Source of the DNA: an uncultured Solirubrobacterales bacterium
GTDB taxonomy: Bacteria > Actinomycetota > Thermoleophilia > Solirubrobacterales > 70-9
Length of the DNA stretch: 64,000 nt
Assembly (NCBI GenBank): GCA_963740065.1
Contig: CAVUCS010000002.1
Coordinates: forward strand, 126,858-190,857
Direction: 5' to 3'
Below, in pieces: positions 1,179 through 62,953 of this stretch. The position numbers and the translations under genes were made by a program. The notes beneath the pieces were generated by a model that saw only the letters and a program-made list of their open reading frames with translations, was not told the origin of the DNA and ran no database searches. Within the stretch, counting starts at the first letter, position 1, and each line of letters begins with the position of its first letter.

Positions 1179-3703
1179 GCGTCCACCTTCTCGATCTCGA
1201 CCGCGACCGGGCCGCCGTTGAGCAGCGCGTTGGCGTTCCCTTCGGCGGTGCCCTCGGTCAAGAAGCAGACCCCTTCGCTCACGCGTTCTTTGATCGCGAC
1301 CAGGGCGCGCAAGCTTGTTCCATTCTGGGACACGCTTACTTCGTCGCCGCTCCTCAGGTCCAGGCGCTCTGCGTCCGCCAAAGACAGTTCCACTCGTTGC
1401 TGGGGTTCGAGAAAGCGGAGAGGGGGGTTCAGCTCTGTGATCGGGCCGGCCCATAGGTCTCGGTAGGTGCCCAATGCCAGAGGGGCCGGTGTCCCCGAAG
1501 AGGGGTGGGCGTTGGTCCCTGGGGCGGTGGAGGCAGGGGGGGTCGCCTCGGCGAAAGCGCAGTCTTCCGGCGAGTCGACCCCCCCTGCCTTATTCGGCTC
1601 CAGCGGCTTGCTCCCGGCGTCGGGCAGAGAAGATGCTGCCGGGCGGTCCTGCCAACGCACTCCCTTACCTGCTATTTCGGAATCTTCGATCCCGGCGTAG
1701 AAGGGGACTGCTTCCGAGATTGCCGCCAAGGCTGAAGGCTGAGAAGCGATGCCGTGTTCGTCGCCCAGAGCTGCCGAGAGTTCAGCAAGGACGAGCAGGT
1801 TGGAGAGGACTTGGTCGGGACGGGCGGCGCTGGGGCGGACTCGTTGTAGGCGGCCGTCGGGGTGGGTGACGGTGCCGTCTTTTTCGGCGTGAGACTCGAG
1901 CGGGAGGACGACATCCGAGATTGCGGTCGTGGCGTTCTCGAACATCGAGAAGGTCACTACGTGGTCGGCTGCTGTGAGAGCTCGTTTCCAAGCTTCCGTG
2001 TCCGGGAAGTCGCGCAACGGGTCGACGCCGAAGAGGATTAGGGACTTGAGCTCGCCTGATTCGAGGGCGGCTCGGATCTCCTCGGTGCTCTTGCCCGGGG
2101 CGGTTTCCTCGAAGCCGGGGCCGGCGTCCGGGAGGCAGCCGACTTCGCGCAGCCCTCGGGCGTTGGCGCTCTCCGGAATCTCCAGAAGACCCGAGCCGTC
2201 CTTCCCGGCGAGATCGAGAGCGGCGGCGAGGTCGAGCAGGGCGGCACCGGCCTTCTCCCCCTCGCGCCCGATCCGCTCCCCCCAGATGACGACGATCGAA
2301 CCTGCCCCCTTCAGAATTGCCGCGATTTCGGCGGTCTGGCTCGGCGCTGTGGACTTTTGGGTCGCAGTAGCAACCTCAAAGTCGACAGCGCGCCCGAACG
2401 CGGTCTCCAGCTCGGCGAGGAAGCGGGTGGCGCCGCCGGGGGCGTAACGGGCGACCGCGGTCGCGCCGGAGTCGAGGGCGCTGGGGCGGTCGGTCGCCAC
2501 CGCCAGCCTGGCGCCGTTGCGGCGAATCGCCTTGCGGATGCGGAGGTCGAGGATCGGGGAGCCGTGTAGGGGGTCGACGCCGACTACGAGGATCGCGTCG
2601 GCGTCGTCGATGTCGCTGACGCGGGCGGAGATGCTCGGGTCGGCGAGGCGCAGGAGCGTTTCCCGGCTCGGCCCGCGGGAGGCGCGGGAGTCGATGTGCG
2701 GAGAGCCGAGCGCCTCGCGCGTCAGCTTCTGGAGGAGGAAGCCCTCCTCGTTGGAGGCGTCGCCGACGATCGCGGCGCTTGCGGCTTCGGCGGCCTTCAG
2801 TCCCGCCGCCGCCTTCGCGATCGCGTCTTCCCAGTCGGTCTCGCCGCCCTTCAGTCGCGGGCCCATCACTCGCTCTTCGGCGGCGAACATCTCAAAGCCG
2901 TAGCGGCCGCGGTCGCAGAGCCAGCCGTCGTCGACTTCCACGTTGTCGCGCGCCACCACCCGCTTCACCTTCTCGTCGCGGACGGTGAAGCTGACGTTGC
3001 ACTGGCTCGGGCAAAGCGTGCAGACCGAGCCGGCCTGCTCGATGTCCCAGGGCCGGGCGCGGAAGCGGTAGGTGTAGCTGGTCAGCGCGCCAACCGGGCA
3101 GAGGTCGGTGATGTTGCCGTGGAAGGGGGCGATGTAGGGGCGGTCGTCGAAGGTGCCGACGAAGGTGCGGTCGCCGCGCTCCAGAAGCTGTAGCTGCTCG
3201 TCCTCGGCAACCTCCTGACTGAAGCGCACGCAGCGGTAACAGAGGATGCAGCGCTCGCGGTCGATTGCGACCAGCGGGCTCAGCTCGATCGGCTTCTGGA
3301 AGTGCCGCTTTTGGTCCGTCATCCGGCTTTTCCCAGGGCCCCATCCCATCGAAATGTCCTGCAGCGGGCATTCGCCGCCTTTGTCGCAGACGGGGCAGTC
3401 GAGCGGGTGGTTGACGAGGAGGAACTCGACCACGGCGCTCTGCGCGCCTCTGACCTGGTCGGTCTGGGTATTGACGACCATGCCGTCGCGGACGGGCGTC
3501 GAGCAGGAGGTCTGCAGCTTCGGCATTCCCTCGATCTCGACCAGGCACATGCGGCAGGCGCCGACCGGCTCACCCAGCTTCGGCTCGTAACAGAAGACCG
3601 GGATCTCGACGTCGCCGCGCTTGGCCGCGTCGTGGAGCATCTCGCCCTCGATCGCGCTTACCTCGCGCCCATCGATGATCAGGGTCACTGCTCTGGCGCT
3701 CAC
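1175..3703 (-). CDS. nuoG: NADH-quinone oxidoreductase subunit G (75-kDa Fe-S/molybdopterin-like subunit)
   Basis: N-terminal 2Fe-2S and 4Fe-4S cysteine clusters (CYEPKLGEPVGACRMCLVE, HPLDCPVCDKGGECPLQD). The GTG start at 3703 overlaps the nuoF stop (GTGA) and is in frame with track ORF 1175..3940. Confidence 0.9.
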   Translation of the reverse strand: MSARAVTLIIDGREVSAIEGEMLHDAAKRGDVEIPVFCYEPKLGEPVGACRMCLVEIEGMPKLQTSCSTPVRDGMVVNTQTDQVRGAQSAVVEFLLVNHPLDCPVCDKGGECPLQDISMGWGPGKSRMTDQKRHFQKPIELSPLVAIDRERCILCYRCVRFSQEVAEDEQLQLLERGDRTFVGTFDDRPYIAPFHGNITDLCPVGALTSYTYRFRARPWDIEQAGSVCTLCPSQCNVSFTVRDEKVKRVVARDNVEVDDGWLCDRGRYGFEMFAAEERVMGPRLKGGETDWEDAIAKAAAGLKAAEAASAAIVGDASNEEGFLLQKLTREALGSPHIDSRASRGPSRETLLRLADPSISARVSDIDDADAILVVGVDPLHGSPILDLRIRKAIRRNGARLAVATDRPSALDSGATAVARYAPGGATRFLAELETAFGRAVDFEVATATQKSTAPSQTAEIAAILKGAGSIVVIWGERIGREGEKAGAALLDLAAALDLAGKDGSGLLEIPESANARGLREVGCLPDAGPGFEETAPGKSTEEIRAALESGELKSLILFGVDPLRDFPDTEAWKRALTAADHVVTFSMFENATTAISDVVLPLESHAEKDGTVTHPDGRLQRVRPSAARPDQVLSNLLVLAELSAALGDEHGIASQPSALAAISEAVPFYAGIEDSEIAGKGVRWQDRPAASSLPDAGSKPLEPNKAGGVDSPEDCAFAEATPPASTAPGTNAHPSSGTPAPLALGTYRDLWAGPITELNPPLRFLEPQQRVELSLADAERLDLRSGDEVSVSQNGTSLRALVAIKERVSEGVCFLTEGTAEGNANALLNGGPVAVEIEKVDA

Positions 3704-4971
3704 GCCGGCACCGCCTCGCGCCCGGCTTCGACGATTACGTCTTCGAACTCCTGCCGGAACTTGCGGACCATCGCGCCGACCGGCATCGCCATCGAGTCGC
3801 CGAGCACGCAGAGGCAGTGGCCGATGATGTTCTCCTGCACCGAAGCGACTATGTCGAGGTCCATCGGCGTCGCCTCGCCGCGGACGACGCGCTCGAGCAT
3901 CTTCACCGTCCAGTTGGTCCCCTCGCGACAGGGAGTGCACTTGCCGCAGGACTCGTGGTGGTAGAAGCGCGCCGTGCGCAGCGCCATGTGCGGGATCGAC
4001 ACCTCGTCGTCGGCGACGATGATTGAGCCGGAGCCGAGCATCGAGCCCGCCTCGGCCATCGCCTCGAAGCTGTAGGGGAGGTCCAGTTCGGCCGGGGTCA
4101 GGACTGGGGAGGAGGAGCCGCCGGGATAGAAGGCCTTCACATCGCGACCGTCAGCCGGCCCGCCCGCCAGGTCGTAGATCAACTCCCGCGTCGGCACGCC
4201 GAGCTCGACTTCGTAGTTGCCGGGGCGCTGGACGCAGCCGGAGACCGAGACGACCTTGGTGCCCGGCGACTGTTCGGTGCCAAAGCCCTTGAACCAGTCG
4301 GAGCCGTTGGCGACGATCCCCGGCACGTTGGAGAGCGTCTCGACGTTGTTGATCAGTGTCGGCCCGCCGTAGAGGCCCTGCACGGCGGGGAACGGAGGCT
4401 TCAGCCGCGGGTTGCCGCGCTTGCCCTCGAGCGCGTCGAGCAGCGCCGTCTCCTCGCCGCAGATGTAGGCGCCGGCGCCGCGGTGGACGACCAGCTCCAG
4501 ATCGCGGTGGGTGCCGAGAATGTCTCTGCCGAGGTAGCCCGCCTGGTAGGCCTCGGCGACCGCGGCGTCGAGGATGTCGGCCTGCAGGTCGTACTCGCCG
4601 CGGATGAAGATGAAGGCATGGCCGGCGTCGGCGGCAAGGGCGGCGATCGCGATCCCCTCGATCAGCTGGTGTGGGTTCTTCTGCATCAGCTCGCGGTCCT
4701 TGAAGGCGCCGGGCTCGGACTCGTCGGCGTTGCAGCAGAGGTACTTCTGCATCTCCCCGCGGGGCAGGAAGGAGGCCTTTTTGCCCATCGAGAAGCCGGC
4801 GCCGCCGCGGCCGCGCAAGCCGGAGTTCTCCAGCTCGGTCAGCACCTCGTCGGCCTCCATCTCGCGGTAGGCCTTTTTCAGGGTGGCGTAGCCGCCGTAT
4901 CTCTCGTAACCGGCGAGCGTGCGTAGCGCCGGGTCGTCGGCGTGCTTGAGCAGTACCCGCGTCTCAGGCAT
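3700..4971 (-). CDS. nuoF: NADH-quinone oxidoreductase subunit F (NADH/FMN-binding)
   Basis: Carries GLRGRGGAGFSMGKK, the FMN/NADH site sequence CNADESEPGAFKDR, and the C-terminal ESCGKCTPCREG 4Fe-4S motif. Confidence 0.95.
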   Translation of the reverse strand: MPETRVLLKHADDPALRTLAGYERYGGYATLKKAYREMEADEVLTELENSGLRGRGGAGFSMGKKASFLPRGEMQKYLCCNADESEPGAFKDRELMQKNPHQLIEGIAIAALAADAGHAFIFIRGEYDLQADILDAAVAEAYQAGYLGRDILGTHRDLELVVHRGAGAYICGEETALLDALEGKRGNPRLKPPFPAVQGLYGGPTLINNVETLSNVPGIVANGSDWFKGFGTEQSPGTKVVSVSGCVQRPGNYEVELGVPTRELIYDLAGGPADGRDVKAFYPGGSSSPVLTPAELDLPYSFEAMAEAGSMLGSGSIIVADDEVSIPHMALRTARFYHHESCGKCTPCREGTNWTVKMLERVVRGEATPMDLDIVASVQENIIGHCLCVLGDSMAMPVGAMVRKFRQEFEDVIVEAGREAVPA

Positions 4972-15897: not shown

Positions 15898-16715
15898 CGA
15901 ACCAGCGCGGCGAGATCGTCGATGACGTGATCGGGGGGCGGGTCGGCGGCCTCCGCGTCCGCCCGCGAGGAGGCGCCGCTGAGAACGAGGATCGTCTCCA
16001 GCCCGGCCCTGCGCCCACCCTCGATGTCGGAGGCGATCCGATCGCCGACCATCGCCACCCTCGCGTTCCGCTGCGACTTACCTCTGTCATGCATAGATAA
16101 GTCGCAGCGGAGCGAGTTGAGGGCGAGGTCGAAGAGGTGGCGTTCGGGCTTGCCCCCGATTGCGGCGCGTTTCCCGGAGGCGGTTTCGACGGCCGCCAGG
16201 GTCGCTCCCGTGCCCGGCAACGCACCCCCCGGCATCGGCAGGGTCGGGTCGCGGCTGGTGGCGAACAGGGCCGCGCCGCCCTGCAGGGCGCGGGTCGCGG
16301 TCGCCAGCTCCGCGTAGTCGAATTCGCGGTGGCCGGAGACGAGCACCGCGTCGGCGCCGTGGGCTTCCTCCCCCTCCAGCAACCTCAGCCCGGTCCCCGC
16401 AATGACCTCCTTGAAACCGGGCGCCCCGATCACGAAGGCCGTGCCGTCGTGCCCGGTTGCCTCCGCGGCGAGTCTGGCGGTCGCGGCCCCCGCCGTCACA
16501 ACCCGATCGTCCGCAATCTCAACTCCCGCATCGCGCAGGCGCGCGGCATAGGCGGAGGGCTTCTTCACCGAGTTGTTGGTGACGAACACAATCTCCGTCC
16601 CCTCCGCAAGCAGCTTCCCCAGGGCCTCGACAGCTCCCGGCACCATCTCGGAGCCTTCCCACACCACACCGTCTAGGTCGACCAGAAACCCGTCGAAGTT
16701 GTCCGCGAGCGCCAT
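15894..16715 (-). CDS. HAD-IIA family hydrolase (NagD-like phosphatase) carrying an in-frame hairpin-repeat insertion
   Basis: Carries the FLVDLDGVVW (DxD), VTNNS, GKP and MVGDRIASDIEGG motifs. The GKP-to-GD spacer contains repeat copy A1 (see findings). Confidence 0.8.
   Translation of the reverse strand: MALADNFDGFLVDLDGVVWEGSEMVPGAVEALGKLLAEGTEIVFVTNNSVKKPSAYAARLRDAGVEIADDRVVTAGAATARLAAEATGHDGTAFVIGAPGFKEVIAGTGLRLLEGEEAHGADAVLVSGHREFDYAELATATRALQGGAALFATSRDPTLPMPGGALPGTGATLAAVETASGKRAAIGGKPERHLFDLALNSLRCDLSMHDRGKSQRNARVAMVGDRIASDIEGGRRAGLETILVLSGASSRADAEAADPPPDHVIDDLAALVR
16064..16114. repeat. family A hairpin repeat, copy A1 (inside the HAD-IIA CDS)
   Basis: CCGCTGCGACTTA (16068-16080) pairs with TAAGTCGCAGCGG (16098-16110), plus outer pairs. 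The apex is CCTCTGTCATGCATAGA. Confidence 0.8.
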
Positions 16716-16731: not shown

Positions 16732-16847
16732 TTGGGCCTATCCCGGTAGGGGTGGAGCGTCTTGTACTTTTTCGTAGCCGGTCATCGCGGACAGCCGCAA
16801 ACGCGGCTCGAAAAAGTTAAGCGGAACCCCTGCCGGGATAGGCCCAA
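16732..16847 (+). repeat. family B structured intergenic element, copy 1 of 3
   Basis: Direct reading: TTGGGCCT-ATCCCGGTAGGGGTGGAGCGTCTTGTACTTTTTCG...CGAAAAAGTTAAGCGGAACCCCTGCCGGGAT-AGGCCCAA. It lies between the divergent HAD-IIA and ABC ATPase genes. Confidence 0.85.
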
Positions 16848-17618: not shown

Positions 17619-20168
17619 GTGACCGGCCTCGCGGTCAAGAGCCTCTGGGCGCGCAAGTTCCGCGCCTTCACCACGACCCTGGCGGTCGTGATCGGCGTCG
17701 CCTTCGTCGCCGGCACCTACATCCTCACCGACACCACCTTCGCCGCCTTCGACGAGATCTTCAGCGACTCGCTGAAAGGGACGAGCGTCGTCGTCACGGC
17801 CAGAGATGCGGTGGAGCAGGATACGGGTGAGATTCCAAGTTTCAGCGCCGCCCTGTTGCCGAAGGTAAGAAGAACCCCGGGGGTGAGACTCGCCGCCGGC
17901 GCGATCTTCACTCCGGGCGGGTTCTTTGACGCCAGAGGCGATGCGATCGGCTCGAGATTTTCACCGAAGTTCATCTCTTCGACCATGCCCGGCGAATTGG
18001 AGTCGCTCACATATGTAGAGGGGAGATCGCCACGCTCACCCGACGAGGCCTCGTTGGACCAGTCGGCGGCGGATGAAGCCGGGATCGGGGTCGGTGACAC
18101 GATCAGACTCGCCTCGGTCAGCCGCGTCAAGAGCTATCGCCTGGTCGGCCTAACCAAGCTCGGCGACACTTCCTTTGGCGGCGCCAGCATCGCCCAGGTG
18201 ACCCTGGGGGAGGCGCAGCGGATCACCGGCAAGCGCGGGCGCTTCGACCAGATCTCGGTTGCGGCCCAGTCGGGCGTTTCGGCGGCGACGCTCAAAGAGC
18301 GGATCCAGCGCGTCGTTCCCCCCTCCGTCCGAGTCGAAACCGCAGAGGAGAACGCCAACCGCTCCTCTGACCAGATCCGCGACAACCTCGGCTTCCTCCG
18401 CATCGCCCTGCTGGTCTTTGCCTTCGTGGCCCTTTTCGTCGGCGCCTTCTTGATCTTCAATACCTTCTCGATCACCGTCGCCCAGCGGATCACCGAGTTC
18501 GGGATGCTGCGCACGCTCGGCGCCGGGCGCGGGCAGATCCTCACCACGGTCGTGGTCGAGGCGCTGGCGATTGGCCTGCTTGGCGCCGTGCTCGGACTCG
18601 CCGCCGGCTTCGGCATCGCCAAGGGGCTGAACGCTCTCTTCGTAGCGATCGGCATCGACCTGCCGACGACGGCGCTGGTGCTGAAGGACCGAACCATCGT
18701 CGCCGCCTTCACGATTGGCATTCTCGTCACTCTCGTCTCCTCGTTCGTGCCGGCGCTGCGCGCCACCCGGGTGCCGCCGATCGCGGCGCTGCAAGCGCTG
18801 GAGATTCCGGTCAGTCGCCGCCGCCGGGCCGTCTACGCGGGGCTGGCGGTCCTGCTCGGTGTCGCCGGCATGGCGATGGTCCTGATCGGACTCTTCGGTG
18901 GCGCCGGCGGAGGCGAGGCGGCGGGGTTGATGGGTGCCGGCGCGGTCGCGGTCGTCCTCGGCGTCTCCCTCTTCAGTCCGCGGCTGGTGCGGCCGCTCGC
19001 CTCAATCGCCGGCTGGCCGCTGCAGCGCATGCGCAAGCTGACCGGGCGCCTCGCTCGCGAGAACACCCAGCGCAATCCCGCTCGCACGGCGGTTACCGCG
19101 GCGGCGCTGATGATCGGCCTCGCCGTGGTCGCCTTTGTCACCGTTTTCGCCGCCGGAATCAAGGGCTCGATCGCCAGCGCGATCGACGACAGCTTCCAGG
19201 GGGAGTTGGTGATCCAGAACAGCGACGGCTTCTCGCCGATCTCCCCTGGCGCCGCGGCGACGGCTCGTCATATTCCCGGGGTGGAGACGGTCTCCACCCT
19301 GCGCGCCACCCAGGCGAAGGTGGAGGGCGCTTCGGGCAAGCCGCGGATTTCGGCACTTGGCCGCGACGCCGGCAGAGTGCTGACCATCGACTGGACGGAG
19401 GGAAGCCCGGCGACGCTGCGTCGCCTCACCGACGGAGAGGTGATCCTCGACAAGTCCTTCGCCTCCTCCAACGGCTTCGAGCTGGGGGACCGGGTCCGTT
19501 TCCTCACCCAGATCGGCAAGCGCCCCACTCTCAGAGTGGTGGGCGAGTTCGAGGACAACGCCGACCTGCTCGGCAGCGCCCTCGTCACGCAGCGCTTGAT
19601 GGCGACCGAATTCGACCAGACCGATGATGTCTTCGATTTCGTCAAGCTGGCGCCGGGAGCGGACGCGAACAGAGTGCAGGCGGCGATCACAGCGGCAATG
19701 GATCGCGCTTTCCCGACCGCGGACGTTCTCAACCAAGCGGAGCTGAAGCAGAATCAGGAAGACCAGGTCAACCAGCTGTTGGGGTTGATCTACGCCCTGC
19801 TCGGGTTGGCCGTGATCGTCTCCCTGTTCGGAATCGCCAACACGCTGGCGCTCTCTATCCATGAGCGCACTCGGGAGCTGGGGATGCTGCGCGCGATTGG
19901 AATGTCCCGCCGCCAGGTGCGGACGATGATTCGCTACGAGGCGGTGATCACGGCCCTGATCGGCGCGATCCTCGGCATGGTGCTCGGCGTGATCTTCGCG
20001 GCGTTGATCGCCCAGCCGCTGAAGGACGAGGGCTTCACCCTCTCCTACCCGATCGGGACGCTGATCGGCCTGCTCGTCTTCGCCGCGATAGCCGGCGTGA
20101 TCGCGGCAATTGCCCCGGCTCGTCGCGCCTCGCGCCTAGATGTCCTGGAGGCGCTGCAGTACGAGTAA
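17619..20168 (+). CDS. ABC transporter permease with two FtsX/MacB-type domains
   Basis: 849 aa with two repeats, each a large extracytoplasmic domain followed by FtsX-like TM bundles. Adjacent to the ATPase. Confidence 0.85.
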   Translation: MTGLAVKSLWARKFRAFTTTLAVVIGVAFVAGTYILTDTTFAAFDEIFSDSLKGTSVVVTARDAVEQDTGEIPSFSAALLPKVRRTPGVRLAAGAIFTPGGFFDARGDAIGSRFSPKFISSTMPGELESLTYVEGRSPRSPDEASLDQSAADEAGIGVGDTIRLASVSRVKSYRLVGLTKLGDTSFGGASIAQVTLGEAQRITGKRGRFDQISVAAQSGVSAATLKERIQRVVPPSVRVETAEENANRSSDQIRDNLGFLRIALLVFAFVALFVGAFLIFNTFSITVAQRITEFGMLRTLGAGRGQILTTVVVEALAIGLLGAVLGLAAGFGIAKGLNALFVAIGIDLPTTALVLKDRTIVAAFTIGILVTLVSSFVPALRATRVPPIAALQALEIPVSRRRRAVYAGLAVLLGVAGMAMVLIGLFGGAGGGEAAGLMGAGAVAVVLGVSLFSPRLVRPLASIAGWPLQRMRKLTGRLARENTQRNPARTAVTAAALMIGLAVVAFVTVFAAGIKGSIASAIDDSFQGELVIQNSDGFSPISPGAAATARHIPGVETVSTLRATQAKVEGASGKPRISALGRDAGRVLTIDWTEGSPATLRRLTDGEVILDKSFASSNGFELGDRVRFLTQIGKRPTLRVVGEFEDNADLLGSALVTQRLMATEFDQTDDVFDFVKLAPGADANRVQAAITAAMDRAFPTADVLNQAELKQNQEDQVNQLLGLIYALLGLAVIVSLFGIANTLALSIHERTRELGMLRAIGMSRRQVRTMIRYEAVITALIGAILGMVLGVIFAALIAQPLKDEGFTLSYPIGTLIGLLVFAAIAGVIAAIAPARRASRLDVLEALQYE

Positions 20169-20175
20169 CTCCGCC

Positions 20176-20218
20176 CCGCTGCGACTTATCCCTGTATGTC
20201 AGAGATAAGTCGCAGCGG
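20176..20218. repeat. family A hairpin repeat, copy A2
   Basis: CCGCTGCGACTTATC / GATAAGTCGCAGCGG with inner CTG/CAG and a TATGT loop. It lies between the convergent ABC permease and esterase genes. Confidence 0.85.
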
Positions 20219-20222
20219 AACG

Positions 20223-25966: not shown

Positions 25967-26671
25967 ATGATGCGGGCGAGGGCCGCCGCAAAGGCGGAAT
26001 CTGCAAAAGAAGTTGCAGGCGATGCGATCGCCGCGGTCAAGCCGAAGCTGCGCGGCGTCTCCCATGAGTGGGCCTTCTTCGTCTCACTCTTCCTTGGCGG
26101 CGGGCTGATTGTCGCTGCCGACAGCCCAACGGCGACCGTCGCGGTCGCCATCTACGCCGCCAGCCTCTCCGCCCTGCTCGGCACCAGCGCCCTCTACCAC
26201 CGGGTCAACTGGAGACGCCCCAGCGTGCGCCTTTGGATGCGCCGCCTCGATCACTCGATGATCTTTTTCCTGATCGCCGGGACCTATACGCCTTTCGCTC
26301 TACTCGTCTTGAACGGCCCGCTCGCCGACGCCGTCCTCGCGGTCGTCTGGATCGGCGCGATCGCCGGCGCGATCGTCGAGATGGTTTGGATAGAGCACCC
26401 GAAATGGGTTGCGGCGCTCATATATGTGTCTTTGGGATGGGTGGCGATCATCGCCTTCCCCGGACTGTGGGATGAGATGGGGATGACGGGAACCATGCTG
26501 GTCGCCGCCGGAGGCCTTCTCTACACCGCCGGCGCGATCGTCTACGCGACCCAGCGCCCCAATCCCTTCCCGCGCGTCTTCGGCTATCACGAGGTATTCC
26601 ACGCCCTCGTCATCCTCGCCGCCGCCGCCCAGTTCGCCGCCATCGCCTTCTACGCCCTCCCCGCTGAATAG
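25967..26671 (+). CDS. hemolysin III / PAQR-family membrane protein
   Basis: 7-TM protein with YHR..W....R.LDHS and HxxxH-type (HEVFHALV) motifs. Start at ATG 25967; the upstream part of the track ORF is antisense to nrdJ. Confidence 0.8.
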   Translation: MMRARAAAKAESAKEVAGDAIAAVKPKLRGVSHEWAFFVSLFLGGGLIVAADSPTATVAVAIYAASLSALLGTSALYHRVNWRRPSVRLWMRRLDHSMIFFLIAGTYTPFALLVLNGPLADAVLAVVWIGAIAGAIVEMVWIEHPKWVAALIYVSLGWVAIIAFPGLWDEMGMTGTMLVAAGGLLYTAGAIVYATQRPNPFPRVFGYHEVFHALVILAAAAQFAAIAFYALPAE

Positions 26672-26786
26672 AGCCCCATCCCGGTAGGGGTGGAGCGTCT
26701 TGTGCTTTTTCGGCGCAGCGGCTCGCGGTAAGCCGGAAACGCTCCTCGAAAAAGTTAAGCGGAACCCCTACCGGGATGGGGCTCTA
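26669..26786 (+). repeat. family B structured intergenic element, copy 2 of 3
   Basis: TAGAGCCCC-ATCCCGGTAGGGGTGGAGCGTCTTGTGCTTTTTCG...CGAAAAAGTTAAGCGGAACCCCTACCGGGAT-GGGGCTCTA. It fills the whole gap between two convergent genes. Confidence 0.85.
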
Positions 26787-43809: not shown

Positions 43810-43851
43810 CCAAGCACCCTAAGCCCGCGCGCGGATGAGCCTCTCCCCCCA

Positions 43852-43902
43852 CGTTCCGCTGCGAGTTATGACTGCTATGCAGAGATAACTCGCAGCGGAA
43901 CG
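43852..43902. repeat. family A hairpin repeat, copy A3
   Basis: CGTTCCGCTGCGAGTTAT / ATAACTCGCAGCGGAACG (18 bp), inner CTGC-TAT-GCAG. It begins 2 nt after the efeB stop, upstream of recQ. Confidence 0.85.
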
Positions 43903-52900: not shown

Positions 52901-53644
52901 ATGCCGTCCCAGCCGAAGATCGTTCTCCACGCCGTCCCCTTCTCGCACCCGGTCCTTGCGGTGAGCGGCGCCCTCGACTATCTCGACCTTGAGTACGAGA
53001 CGGTGCAGCTGGTCCTCGGCAAGCAGGCCGAGGAGGTTGAGCGCATCTATGGCGAGGGGCGCAAGACCGTGCCCGGGCTGTTGGTGGACGACGAGCCGGC
53101 GCACGGTACGGCTGCGGTTTTCTCGCGCATCGACGAGTTGCGGCCGGACGGCGGTCTCTATCCGGCCGCGGTCGCGGATGCCGTGCGCGAGGCGGAGGCC
53201 GGCCTCGCGCAGGAGATTCAGCAGACCGCGCGGGTGCTCTCCTTCGGGGCGCTGTATTTCCGCCCGGAGTCGATGGGCACGTTCTCGGGAATTGACCAGC
53301 TCGACCCGCGCGGGGTCGACTTCGCGATCAAGTCGGTGCGCGCCGCCTGGCGCTACCTCGGAATCACCGCCGAGCTGGTCCACGCCACCCTGCAGGAGCT
53401 TCCGAAGCAGCTCGACGCGGTGGACGCCCTCGCCGACATTGGAGCGATCGGCGGCGAAGTCCCCACCGCGGCCGACTTCCAGCTCGGCTCCACGCTGCAC
53501 CTGCTCGATCAGATCGCCGATCTGCGCCCGCTGCTCGCCGACCGCCCCGCGGGCGCGCTCGCTCCCGCCTGGTTCGAGAAAGGCGCGGGCGACATCACGG
53601 CCGGCGCTTTCCCGCCCGGCTGGGTCCCGGCGCCCGGTCGATAG
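52901..53644 (+). CDS. glutathione S-transferase-like (thioredoxin-fold N-domain) protein
   Basis: From Met 52901: IVLHAVPFSHPV...LEYETVQL...KTVPGLLVDD matches the GST N-domain pattern. Weak call. Confidence 0.5.
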   Translation: MPSQPKIVLHAVPFSHPVLAVSGALDYLDLEYETVQLVLGKQAEEVERIYGEGRKTVPGLLVDDEPAHGTAAVFSRIDELRPDGGLYPAAVADAVREAEAGLAQEIQQTARVLSFGALYFRPESMGTFSGIDQLDPRGVDFAIKSVRAAWRYLGITAELVHATLQELPKQLDAVDALADIGAIGGEVPTAADFQLGSTLHLLDQIADLRPLLADRPAGALAPAWFEKGAGDITAGAFPPGWVPAPGR

Positions 53645-53678
53645 CCGCTCCAGCCCCGGGCGAAGGTATAACCGCCTC

Positions 53679-55493
53679 GTGGCGGAACCCGCAATCGGCT
53701 CGGCGCTCGGCGGCTATCGCATCGATGCGCTGATCGCGCGCGGCGGGATGGGGGTCGTCTACCGGGCTACGCACCTGGCGCTGGACCGGCCGGTGGCGCT
53801 GAAGGTGATCGCCGCACATCTCGCCGCCGACGACGGGTTTCGCAGTCGCTTTCTGCGCGAGTCGCGCCTCGCCGCGCGCCTCGACCACCCCAACGTGGTG
53901 CCGGTTTTCGACGCTCGCGAAGAGGACGGCGAGCTGATCGTCGCGATGCGCCTGGTCGAGGGCGGCGACCTGAAGAGAGCGATCGACCGTGAGGGACCGC
54001 TGGCGCCCGATCGCGCGATCGAACTTCTGGGGCAGATCGCCGCCGCGTTGGACGCCGCTCACGCCGCCGGGATCGTCCATCGTGACGTCAAGCCGCACAA
54101 CATCCTCGTCGATGGCGACCGCGCCTACCTCTCCGACTTTGGCCTCGCCAAGGCCGCCGGCGACTCCGGCCTGCTCAGCGAGGCCTCGGTGGTCGGCACC
54201 GCCCAGTACATGTCGCCCGAGCAGTGGCGGGGTGAGCAGATCGGCCCCGCCGCCGACGTCTACTCGCTCGGTTGCGTCCTCTATGAGGCACTGACGGGGG
54301 TCGTTCCCTACGCGCGTCGCGAGGGCGATGCTGAGCCGCGCATGCCGAGAGGGTTGGACCAGGTGATCGAGCGGGCGGTCTCACCCGACGCCGATGCTCG
54401 CTACCAGAGCGCGGGGGAGTTGATCGAAGCCGCCCGCGAGCATCAAGGGGCTACGCCGGCCCCGACGCTCGTCCTTTCCGAGACTCCCGGCAGGAAGACC
54501 GCGGTGCTCTCTGAGGAGAGCGGTCGGCGCGGCTTTCGCGAGTGGCTTGGCGCGAAGGCGAAGAGCGCGGCGATCACCGTCGGCGGCATCCTCGTCGTGA
54601 TCCTCGTGGCCTTCGTTGCCCAGAAGCTCTTCGGAGGCGGCGATGTCTCCGTTTCCGACCCGATTCCGATCGGCAAGGGCCCACTGAGGGTCGCGGTCGG
54701 CGCCCGCTCTGTCTGGGTGACCAGCGCCGGCGACGGAACTCTTTCCCGGATCGATCTTGCGACCGAGGGAGTCGCGGGAAGACCGCTGCACCTCGGACGG
54801 GGAATCGCCGGTGTTGCCGTCGGCGAAGGCTCGGTCTGGGTCACCAGTTCCCGCACCGGCGAAGTCCTGCGGGTCGACGGGGATGCCGGCGCCGTTGAGG
54901 ACCGGATCGATGTAGGCGGGCGCCCGGGCGCGATTGCCTTTGGCGGCGGCAGGGTTTGGGTCGCCGACCAAGCCGGCGGGGGAATAGTCGCGATCAACGC
55001 AGTCGGCGGGCGAGTGTTCAAGCGCGGCATCGCTCCCCACGTCGCGCCCCTGCGGCTCGCCGTCGGCGCGGGCGGCCTCTGGGTCAGCAGCGCCGAGACC
55101 GGCAACGTGCGCCGGGTCGACCTTGGCGACGCCCTCGCCGCCGACCCGATCGCCGTCGGGCGCGGCCCCTCGGGAGTCACCGTCGGCGGCGGCGTGGTCT
55201 GGGTCGCCAACAGCCGCGGCGACAGCGTCACCCGCGTCGATCCGGCGACGAGGACGCTGCTCGGAGAACCGATCGCCGTCGGCGATCGCCCGGGGGGCAT
55301 CGACGCCGGCACCACCGCGGTCTGGGTCGCCAACTCCGCCGACGGCACCGTTACCCGGATCGATATCGAAAACGGAGAAACCGAGGGCGACCCGATCTCC
55401 GTCGGCGCCGATCCTGGCGCAATCGCTGTCGGCTCGGAAGCGGTCTGGGTAGCCAACAATGGCGACGGCACCGTTACCCGGATCGAACCGTAG
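53679..55493 (+). CDS. Ser/Thr protein kinase with a TM segment and an extracellular beta-propeller (NHL/YVTN-like repeats)
   Basis: GGMGVVYRA, ALKV, HRDVKPHNIL, DFGLAKA and SPEQ motifs, then a TM segment and ~6 repeats of G..P.GVAVG.G.VWV. GTG at 53679; the upstream part of the track ORF overlaps the GST-like gene. Confidence 0.85.
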   Translation: MAEPAIGSALGGYRIDALIARGGMGVVYRATHLALDRPVALKVIAAHLAADDGFRSRFLRESRLAARLDHPNVVPVFDAREEDGELIVAMRLVEGGDLKRAIDREGPLAPDRAIELLGQIAAALDAAHAAGIVHRDVKPHNILVDGDRAYLSDFGLAKAAGDSGLLSEASVVGTAQYMSPEQWRGEQIGPAADVYSLGCVLYEALTGVVPYARREGDAEPRMPRGLDQVIERAVSPDADARYQSAGELIEAAREHQGATPAPTLVLSETPGRKTAVLSEESGRRGFREWLGAKAKSAAITVGGILVVILVAFVAQKLFGGGDVSVSDPIPIGKGPLRVAVGARSVWVTSAGDGTLSRIDLATEGVAGRPLHLGRGIAGVAVGEGSVWVTSSRTGEVLRVDGDAGAVEDRIDVGGRPGAIAFGGGRVWVADQAGGGIVAINAVGGRVFKRGIAPHVAPLRLAVGAGGLWVSSAETGNVRRVDLGDALAADPIAVGRGPSGVTVGGGVVWVANSRGDSVTRVDPATRTLLGEPIAVGDRPGGIDAGTTAVWVANSADGTVTRIDIENGETEGDPISVGADPGAIAVGSEAVWVANNGDGTVTRIEP

Positions 55494-55606
55494 GGGACCA
55501 TCCCGGTAGGGGTGGAACGTCTTGTACTTTTTCGCGACAGCCGCTCGCGGTAAGCCGCAAACGTTCCTCGAAAAAGTTAAGTGGAACCCCTACCGGGATG
55601 GTCCCC
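55493..55606 (+). repeat. family B structured intergenic element, copy 3 of 3
   Basis: GGGGACC-ATCCCGGTAGGGGTGGAACGTCTTGTACTTTTTCG...CGAAAAAGTTAAGTGGAACCCCTACCGGGAT-GGTCCCC. It lies between the kinase stop and tkt. Confidence 0.85.
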
Positions 55607-58760: not shown

Positions 58761-58771
58761 CCCAACCGACG

Positions 58772-58818
58772 TTCCGCTGCGACTTATCCCTGTATGTCAG
58801 GGATAAGTCGCAGCGGAA
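58772..58818. repeat. family A hairpin repeat, copy A4
   Basis: TTCCGCTGCGACTTATCCCTG-TATGT-CAGGGATAAGTCGCAGCGGAA, a 21-bp perfect stem between tal and pgi. Confidence 0.9.
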
Positions 58819-58824
58819 GGCTTC

Positions 58825-61896: not shown

Positions 61897-62901
61897 ATGA
61901 GCCTCGCCGACGTCTCCGCAGTCATCCTCTGGGCCGGGGCCACCCTCTACGCGCTCTTCGGCGGCGCCGACTTCGGCGCCGGCCTCTGGGATCTGATCGC
62001 CGGGGACGATCAGCGTGGAGAGCGACCCCGCGCCTTGATCCAGCGCTCCCTCACTCCCGTTTGGGAGGCGAACCACGTTTGGCTGATCTTCATCCTGGTT
62101 GTCCTCTGGACCGCCTTCCCCGAGGCCTTCAGCGCGGTGATGACGACGCTGTACGTGCCGCTGACGCTGGCCGCGTTCGGGATCGTCTTGCGCGGCGCGG
62201 GCTTCGCCTTCCGCAAGTCGATCCACTCCTTCCAGGCGCGGCGGGCGATGGGGGCAACCTTCGCCCTTTCCTCGGTGCTGACCCCGTTCTTCATGGGGTG
62301 CGTCGTGGGGGCAATCGCATCCGGCAACGTCCCCGCCGCCGGTGACGGCGACGCCTTCGCAAGTTGGATTGAGCCGCTGCCGTTGCTGACCGGGGCGCTG
62401 TTCGTCGCCAGCGGCGCCTATCTGTCGGCGATCTTCCTGATCGGCGACGCTCGCCGGGCCGGCGCAAGCGACCTCGAGGATTACTTCACTCGCCGCGCCC
62501 TCGCCGCTTCGCTGGTCGCGGGCGCCTTTGCCGTCGCCGGCATCTTCGCCCTGCGCGCCGACGCCCGCTACATATACGACGGCCTCACCAGCGAGGGCCT
62601 GCCGCTGGTGATCCTCTCGGCCCTCTGCGGCCTGGCGGTCGTGGTTCAACTGCTGCGCCGCGATCGCCGCGGGCTGCGCCCGCTCGCCGCCGGCGCGGTC
62701 GTCGCCGTGATCTGGGGCTGGGGCGTCGCCCAGTTCCCCTACCTGCTTCCGACTTCGCTGAAGATCTCCCAGTCGGCGGCTCCCTACGACACCCTGCTGA
62801 TCGTGCTGATCGTCTTCTGCATCGCCGCGGTGATCGTGCTGCCATCGCTCGGGCTCCTCTACTGGCTCACCCAGCGTGATTTGCTCGAGGCCGAGCACTA
62901 G
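61897..62901 (+). CDS. cydB: cytochrome bd ubiquinol oxidase subunit II
   Basis: Typical CydB N-terminus (LYALFGGADFGAGLWDL) and 8 TM. ATG at 61897 after a GAGGTG SD; the upstream part of the track ORF spans hairpin H5. Confidence 0.85.
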   Translation: MSLADVSAVILWAGATLYALFGGADFGAGLWDLIAGDDQRGERPRALIQRSLTPVWEANHVWLIFILVVLWTAFPEAFSAVMTTLYVPLTLAAFGIVLRGAGFAFRKSIHSFQARRAMGATFALSSVLTPFFMGCVVGAIASGNVPAAGDGDAFASWIEPLPLLTGALFVASGAYLSAIFLIGDARRAGASDLEDYFTRRALAASLVAGAFAVAGIFALRADARYIYDGLTSEGLPLVILSALCGLAVVVQLLRRDRRGLRPLAAGAVVAVIWGWGVAQFPYLLPTSLKISQSAAPYDTLLIVLIVFCIAAVIVLPSLGLLYWLTQRDLLEAEH

Positions 62902-62902
62902 C

Positions 62903-62953
62903 CGTTCCGCTTGGCCTTTTCCCGGACATACAGGGAAAAGGCAAAGCGGAACG
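62903..62953. repeat. family A-related hairpin repeat, copy A5 (same outer stem, different inner stem)
   Basis: CGTTCCGCTTGGCCTTTTCCC-GGACATACA-GGGAAAAGGCAAAGCGGAACG, 20 of 21 positions paired, directly after the cydB stop. Confidence 0.8.

Follow-up and report, generated by a model that had tools for sequence, protein, structure and literature searches.

The window analysed here, i.e., the whole stretch of 64,000 nt of DNA, contains three copies of an element of about 115 nt (family B), in which a conserved core is enclosed by outer flanks that pair perfectly within each copy and vary from copy to copy. The question is what such an element is, where its arms come from and what keeps them complementary. 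Two readings were offered by the first-pass annotation: a structured single strand whose closing helix covaries, or a mobile element that inserts at the centre of pre-existing palindromes. As judged by sequence comparison, the three copies belong to an old, previously undescribed family of hairpin repeats (~115 nt) of Solirubrobacterales/Thermoleophilia.

Three copies in the window and the anatomy of the hairpin

The copies lie at 16732-16847, 26669-26786 and 55493-55606, each on the + strand, and there are exactly three in the window. The 17-mer ATCCCGGTAGGGGTGGA has three exact occurrences (0.19 expected by chance), CTTGTACTTTTT with at most two mismatches also occurs three times (0.23 expected), and an nhmmer profile built on 100+ copies finds no further copy in the window; the number, positions and common orientation given at first therefore hold in exact, two-mismatch and profile searches alike. 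Direct reading of all three copies confirms that the locus-specific outer flanks are perfect inverted repeats of 7-9 bp (TTGGGCCT/AGGCCCAA, TAGAGCCCC/GGGGCTCTA and GGGGACC/GGTCCCC). The core had also correctly been described as AT-richer than its surroundings: GC content is 50-58% in the inner parts and 59-61% in the elements, compared with 67.8% in the window. A long hairpin, far stabler than shuffled sequence, is predicted from either strand, as RNA (-68 to -82 kcal/mol, z -7 to -10 for the window copies) or as DNA (-40 to -46 kcal/mol, z about -8).

Copy 1 (16732-16847, + strand) lies between divergent genes for a HAD hydrolase (- strand) and an ABC ATPase (+ strand). Its copy-specific left outer arm, TTGGGCCTA (16732-16740), pairs with the right outer arm, TAGGCCCAA (16839-16847), and is followed by the subfamily-specific proximal stem TCCCGGTAGGGG (16741-16752), which includes GTAG and has CCCCTGCCGGGA (16827-16838) as its right side; T16747 of this stem forms a T.G wobble with G16832. 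The invariant inner modules, TGGAGCGTCTTGTACTTTTT on the left (16753-16772) and AAAAAGTTAAGCGGAA on the right (16811-16826), share an R:Y pair in the G-C state (G16757 with C16822) and enclose a variable centre (16773-16810), whose apex hairpin GCGG-ACAG-CCGC carries the conserved C-A-G-C motif; all these parts are given on the + strand. Copy 2 (26669-26786, + strand) is placed between convergent genes, an HlyIII-family gene (+) and a sirohaem-synthase-like gene (-), and comprises a left stem (26679-26690), two inner modules (26691-26710 and 26749-26764) and a right stem (26765-26776). Its outermost paired arm triplets are the TAG stop of the + gene (26669-26671) and the stop of the - gene (CTA, 26784-26786). 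Copy 3 (55493-55606, + strand) is found between tandem genes for a Ser/Thr kinase (+) and a transketolase (+), with stems at 55501-55512 and 55587-55598 and inner modules at 55513-55532 and 55571-55586. Its R:Y pair is in the A-T state (A55517/T55582), and the TAG stop of the kinase gene (55491-55493) abuts and overlaps the left arm. The divergent, convergent and tandem contexts noted at first are thus real for the window copies, and the surroundings consist of housekeeping genes. The C-terminal part of the kinase gene (52989-55493) contains diverged tandem repeats of ~123 nt (54654-55486, 60-75% identity), which match Vgb_lyase/beta-propeller-like repeats, end just short of copy 3 and look like coding domain repeats.

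Within the family, each copy is a single continuous irregular hairpin with a core of 98-101 nt in nearly all copies, and conservation declines from the inside outwards. The inner helix is near-invariant, asymmetric and bulged (CTTGTAC-TTTTT pairs with AAAAA-GTTAAG), and the inner modules, TGGA-R-CGTCTTGTACTTTTT and AAAAAGTTAAG-Y-GGAA, are near-invariant as well. The centre falls into several types, variable in sequence and length, in which an apex motif is kept (e.g., CGG-AC-AGC-C or GGCG-YC-AGC, with conserved CAGC). The closing helix comprises 20-30 bp, of which the proximal 12 bp are subfamily-specific and the distal 7-10 bp copy-specific. The proximal stem TCCCGGTAGGGG/CCCCTRCCGGGA is common to the main subfamily and covaries when the left arm is sampled without bias; other subfamilies retain only CTTGTACTTTTT...AAAAAGTTRAG and have quite different closing stems of 20-25 bp.

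The outer arms do not differ completely between copies, as had been supposed; beside TCCCGG they follow a loose consensus, TNARRGCCNR. At arm positions 1-7, more than 90% of the pairs are Watson-Crick, with three or four pair types at each position, whereas at positions 8-10 the figures are 68%, 42% and 52%, against about 25-30% expected, i.e., the decay past position 7 is gradual. Among 112 further copies, flanks are inverted over 7-8 bp as a rule and over 13 bp at most, whereas a left flank combined with the right flank of another copy usually matches it over 0-1 bp only. The flanks are indeed inverted and not direct, since at flank position 9 complementary partners outnumber identical bases. 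The paired arm sometimes takes in the stop codon of the neighbouring gene itself. Structurally, the copy-specific outer stems form the end of a single long closing helix, the part of it that evolves fast and is least constrained.

Truncated and nested copies occur among the sampled loci (labelled here with L and a number, e.g., L110). Mini-versions in L104 (1084-1151), L105 and L037 keep both ends and have lost the T5-centre-A5 part or more. A solitary right-end fragment, starting from at or near (AA)GTTAAG, adjoins a full copy in L004/L168, L139, L107 and L096 and stands alone in L128; the breakpoints of these fragments are clustered within about 10 nt around GTTAAG. The L004 fragment has the other R:Y state and an arm that resembles that of the orthologous copies, and the sequences suggest that one copy may here have partly replaced an older one.

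Extent, age and genomic position of the family

Solirubrobacterales are abundant soil bacteria that are known almost wholly from metagenome-assembled genomes (MAGs). A scan with the left-end 19-mer, using one genome per species, detected at least 119 genome loci; among the matches listed, 80 genome loci carry organism titles, all of them Solirubrobacterales, Thermoleophilia or unclassified actinobacterial MAGs. A scan with the right inner module detected at least 120 metagenome loci. Together with extra copies inside the matched loci, the search of related genomes proposed in the first-pass annotation thus yielded at least about 250 further copies in 1.7 Mb. Extrapolation from three copies in 64 kb gives an estimate of about a hundred copies per genome. 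The initial view that the element is neither a riboswitch or 5' leader nor a named RNA family proved sound, since Rfam 15 has no match in the window at the gathering score and a permissive search returns chance-level matches only (E above 1). A literature search on repeats and palindromes of Solirubrobacterales found nothing relevant. A phage origin was rejected, as IMG/VR gives a single match, on a 1.8-Mb contig.

The family is old. Centre identity is 0.68 within genomes and 0.635 between genomes, with a maximum of 0.89; copies within a genome are thus barely more alike than copies from different genomes, which argues against recent bursts or homogenisation within genomes. Near-identical copies are absent within genomes, so that nothing points to recent mobility. 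Even so, the core hardly differs among all these old, diverged copies, which implies either purifying selection at each locus or a homogenising process of some kind that is restricted to the core.

Both neighbouring genes were called for 171 copies, of which 76 (44%) are in convergent, 52 in (-,-), 33 in (+,+) and 10 in divergent contexts; at 94% of the copies, at least one of the two neighbours thus has its 3' end next to the element. For 63 genes that read into the left end, the stop codon is at arm positions 8-10 in 25 cases and at the TAG of TCCCGGTAG in 21, and the right end is similar. The arms and the internal TAG thus supply stop codons to flanking genes. Overlapping stops (CTAG, TTAG, CTAA) or gaps of a few bases are very frequent between convergent genes in the window and in the sampled loci; with genes so tightly abutted, intergenic space is minimal wherever a hairpin repeat is absent.

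An intrinsic (Rho-independent) terminator requires, on the transcribed strand, a U-tract directly after a GC-rich hairpin. In family B, the T5 run comes before the inner hairpin whichever strand is read and no U-tract follows any stem, and a scan at copies 1 and 2 called no terminator-like or promoter-like site; an intrinsic terminator was rejected on these grounds.

Comparison of orthologous sites reveals how the arms change. They differ between genomes with both sides altered together, and arm identity tracks centre identity and R:Y state, as expected for descent at the site. For example, the upstream stop TAA in L110 has become TGA in L158, and in the opposite arm T has become the matching C. 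Complementarity of the arms was thus maintained during the evolution of each copy at its site. Two sites also show signs of independent gain: L002 and L014 have different centre types at different offsets from the stop codon, and the elements of L094 and L086 are in opposite orientations. At the site of L001, the relatives L089 and L013 bear family-A-like palindromes in place of family B.

Two other hairpin families were encountered. Family A, with five copies in the window (16058-16114, 20166-20222, 43846-43902, 58764-58820 and 62897-62953), is a palindrome of ~50 nt, CGTTCCGCTGCGACTTATC...GATAAGTCGCAGCGGAACG, with conserved ends (GTTCCGC/GCGGAAC) and inner stems that are variable yet paired; its 7-mer GCGGAAC is also present in the right module of family B. 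Family C, a hairpin of 150-190 nt, was seen in L007, L021, L022, L024, L053, L069, L100, L104, L105, L189 and L225 and has no copy in the window. It has a conserved interior, ...ACCAAGCGGGGCAAGGACGCAGGGAGGCCGAATGGCAGCGCCATTCGGCCGACTGAGGACGC..., and copy-specific, nearly perfectly paired outer stems of 17-27 bp; this design, conserved inside and with a variable closing helix, is that of family B. An Rfam scan of seven loci at the gathering score, five of them with family C, gave no family C match.

Covariation, strand and the maintenance of the fold

Pairing was evaluated in an alignment of 148 sequences with an author-specified structure of 37 pairs. Paired cells make up 95.2% of this alignment, compared with 85.3% in column shuffles; 22 of the 37 pairs have changes on both sides; and the covariation score is 0.308, compared with 0.114 in shuffles (0 of 500 reach 0.308) and 0.03-0.06 in controls with slid partners. 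These values support the first of the two original readings, a structured single strand with a covarying closing helix. The R:Y pair (TGGA-R-CG with AAG-Y-GG) is in the A-T state in 123 copies and in the G-C state in 109, with 5 discordant copies. Its state is the same in 27 of 52 moderately diverged orthologous comparisons, which is no more than chance, and is mostly common where the arms remain alike (20 of 25).

Mismatches indicate which strand matters. At one pair of the proximal stem, with the left arm sampled without bias, T-A is found 67 times, T.G 22 times, C-G 19 times and C.A never. The series T-A/T.G/C-G without C.A is the classical wobble path, which marks the + strand; a cruciform would not tell the two routes apart. 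In the core stem, G.T mismatches outnumber A.C mismatches in every gene context (14 v 3, 12 v 0 and 17 v 1). As this excess persists even in (-,-) contexts (12 G.T v 0 A.C), in which read-through transcription would yield the opposite strand, it argues against a passive 3'-UTR effect and favours recognition of single-stranded DNA or a transcript of the element's own. The T.G state is somewhat commoner in (+,+) than in (-,-) contexts (8/19 and 5/33, respectively). The outer arms have G.T and A.C mismatches in equal measure, with no wobble bias dependent on the direction of transcription. For the element as a whole, the + strand gives the better fold (162 v 64 copies), whereas for the central 40 nt it is the - strand (162 v 47). 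Orientation has at most a weak link with GC skew (56 v 67, t = -2.1), and a polar chromosome motif was rejected for this reason.

Within this context, we give an even chance to the view that the elements form an old, order-wide, REP/REPIN-like family of hairpin repeats that would act as a folded + strand read by a putative trans-acting protein. The element would be non-autonomous, rarely gained or lost, mostly inherited vertically and tolerated at gene 3' ends. The selected form would be the folded + strand, with the conserved bulged helix as the part probably recognised by the putative protein. By analogy with REPs read by RAYT, it would most likely act as single-stranded DNA, as suggested by a strand-specific wobble signature that is independent of the transcription direction of neighbouring genes; effects on mRNA, e.g., of a 3' hairpin near a stop codon, would likely be a side consequence. 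However, several observations sit uneasily with this REP/REPIN-like reading. A tblastn search of 1.7 Mb of element-centred DNA with an approximate query, an IS200-type Y1 TnpA, gave only a spurious match antisense in atpB and thus no partner protein. Near-identical copies are absent within genomes, a core that hardly varies among old copies is no less expected of a host function than of a selfish element, the better fold of the centre is that of the - strand, and orientation has no clear link with GC skew. Moreover, since G.T and A.C are equally common in the outer arms, pairing there could come from templated correction and not from selection on one strand.

Such correction, i.e., template switching or quasipalindrome correction in an extruded hairpin that sometimes extends into the flank, might be the mutational mechanism by which the arms are kept perfect. 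We regard this as a real possibility but not a probable one; it would be compatible with any functional reading. It would account for the balance of outer-arm mismatches whatever the transcription direction, for an R:Y state that switches often with intermediates under 2.5%, and for pairing that fades gradually past position 7, at times over the neighbour's stop codon. The unrelated families A and C also have copy-specific, perfectly paired stems, up to 17-27 bp. However, the strand-specific wobble path of the core stem implies selection, and ordinary compensatory evolution over large divergences could look alike.

It is also conceivable, though we consider it rather unlikely, that the element is a host-selected, order-wide structure, folded RNA or single-stranded DNA, which would mark gene ends together with a dedicated putative protein that recognises the invariant bulged helix; its arms, as in families A and C, may be kept perfect by templated correction. 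A further reading, which appears unlikely, would have the element as a host-selected, cis-acting RNA in 3' UTRs that protects the mRNA end, stops convergent read-through or tunes translation termination, with the bulged helix as a putative site for an RNA-binding protein or nuclease. The position of 94% of copies at a gene 3' end (44% convergent) and the stop codons inside the helix suit such an RNA, as do the strong covariation and G.U-type wobble and the higher share of T.G in contexts with read-through of the + strand only. That old, diverged copies have kept their core almost unchanged implies purifying selection locus by locus and points the same way. The orthologous site occupied by a different hairpin family is likewise in its favour. 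However, the asymmetric module occurs in both orientations, 52 (-,-) compared with 33 (+,+), the wobble preference of the core stays on the + strand in (-,-) contexts, no U-tract follows the stems, the scan of copies 1 and 2 called neither a terminator nor a promoter, and Rfam contains no match.

Empty sites, candidate parents and known repeats

Flanking genes were matched between loci by protein and nucleotide similarity, which gave about 30 orthologous pairs of filled and empty sites, 27 of them by flanking proteins; many sites are filled in several genomes. A typical empty site consists of convergent genes on overlapping stops (CTAG, TTAG, CTAA) or a few bases apart. In the clearest case, L205 is empty (GGTC TAA GCCGAC) and L110, L158 and L097 are filled; the arms GGCCTG/CAGGCC are missing altogether from the empty site, together with the core. 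As the arms are absent from empty sites, they came with the element or formed at insertion. An origin as an inverted duplication of the target was rejected, as the adjacent flanks contain no excess of direct copies of the arms.

An ordinary MITE, in which the TCCCGGTAGGGG ends are the terminal inverted repeats of an autonomous, unsampled IS and the hairpin is incidental, is improbable. Terminal inverted repeats, many copies, differences in presence between related genomes, subfamilies with different termini, and truncated and nested copies would all be expected of it, and the junction of L205 compared with L110/L097/L158 can be read as a TA or AA duplication (or none). However, a longer element with the same termini and a transposase, the hallmark proposed at the outset, was not found among the about 250 element-centred loci listed. 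The long interruptions in L020, L006 and L028 are unrelated; a consistent direct target duplication is absent, with inverted partners exceeding identical bases at position 9; and the arms are not repeated in adjacent DNA. Covariation of variable arm positions is not predicted by a transposase that binds two ends, the conservation peak is internal and not terminal, and young copies are absent.

Every copy whose left end had no following right end was inspected for a parent IS, and each candidate was rejected. L020 has a 2.75-kb IS (1644-4397; two ORFs of about 415 aa) in the A5 tract of a copy, with an 8-bp duplication, CCAAAAAG. In L006, an IS1595-like IS (about 1540-2590) with unrelated ends, GGAGCTAAGCGGGTACGCA, lies between two copies; its transposase, of 309 aa, has a Cys-rich (CxxC) motif at the N-terminus. 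The copies of L028 and L112 are truncated, beside an AT-rich island and the atp operon, respectively, and L104/L114, considered as IS at GTTAAG (IS110-like targeting), are actually TAAG-microhomology deletions to a neighbouring family C unit. The genes that lie between inverted pairs of copies are housekeeping genes.

Where insertion targets palindromes, as with IS1397 in REP loops, empty targets already carry the palindrome. The second of the original readings, a mobile core that inserts at the centre of pre-existing short palindromes, was rejected as very improbable despite the existence of nested hairpins (a family A element inside a family B centre in L114), since none of the orthologous empty sites read (small-gap and nucleotide-level cases) carries an arm palindrome, arm-type palindromes without a core number just 2 in 968 kb, and the arms obey a family-wide consensus.

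Among known systems, REPINs are the closest in design. These hairpins of ~100 nt have conserved, inverted ends on the two sides of a spacer that varies; compensatory changes are frequent in them, their fold is predicted in single-stranded DNA or mRNA, and they persist vertically for long periods (PMC3116915). RAYT binds single-stranded REP and not the inverse strand, and a REP unit is a palindrome of 20-50 nt after a conserved tetranucleotide, usually GTAG (PMC8266576). REP/RAYT systems have been described in Proteobacteria and Nostoc (PMC3116915, PMC8266576), whereas the present host belongs to an actinobacterial order. Family B is likewise a dispersed extragenic hairpin of ~100 nt with inverted conserved ends, a variable middle and compensatory changes; it has GTAG in each arm, the data suggest that one particular single strand matters, and it is long-lived at orthologous sites and mostly vertical. 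However, GTAG is here buried in a long stem, the following GGGTGGAGCGTCTTGTAC... is not self-complementary and pairs only with the other arm, and the strongest conservation is in an internal, asymmetric, bulged helix. As neither half is a palindrome preceded by GTAG, the element is not a classical REP doublet. Genomes with REP/RAYT carry a cognate single-copy gene for RAYT, a Y1/HUH transposase, often flanked by the repeats; in the 1.7 Mb of element-centred loci, no RAYT gene was seen.

In E. coli, REP/BIME elements have a stabilising effect on the mRNA upstream, and a REP no more than about 15 nt from a stop codon lowers translation, as ribosomes stall. Family B resembles them in its position at gene 3' ends or between convergent genes, with a hairpin that starts at or inside the stop; it differs in that it is longer and often supplies stop codons itself. 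The Correia elements of Neisseria and the ERIC elements are MITEs, ~100-150 nt long and bounded by terminal inverted repeats, which fold into a hairpin in transcripts and vary in presence. Size, terminal inverted repeats, hairpin fold and presence that varies between relatives are shared with family B, in which, by contrast, a consistent target duplication is absent, none of the about 250 loci listed shows a parent IS, variable arm positions covary and conservation is highest internally.

Integron attC sites have R''/R' boxes (RYYYAAC/GTTRRRY) at the site ends and occur in cassette arrays with an integrase nearby. As with attC, the substrate in family B would be a folded single strand, in which a bulged helix is conserved and the terminal structure varies; the element likewise lies just after stop codons, and its GTTAAGY fits the R' consensus GTTRRRY. 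However, GTTAAGY lies inside the element, and another GC-rich helix, of 20-30 bp, encloses it. An attC identity was rejected, as the copies are solitary among housekeeping genes, and no cassette arrays or integrase context were seen. Family B is thus a previously undescribed hairpin-repeat family of the REP/REPIN/MITE kind that fits neither a REP doublet, an ordinary MITE, a terminator, an attC site nor an Rfam family.

With over 20 covarying pairs, a strand-specific wobble path and a near-invariant core, the element is among the better-supported unnamed structured elements for libraries of RNA/DNA motifs. It also matters for annotation, as many genes here end on stops within the repeat, and assemblies and gene callers cope poorly with such repeats. 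If the arms are kept by correction within the hairpin, quasipalindrome conversion would have left a natural record in these genomes. The existence of a partner protein would extend REP/RAYT-like biology to Actinomycetota; without one, the conserved core would need another explanation. If the host-selected reading is true, an actinobacterial order that is largely uncultured would possess a new nucleic-acid/protein system by which the ends of genes are marked.
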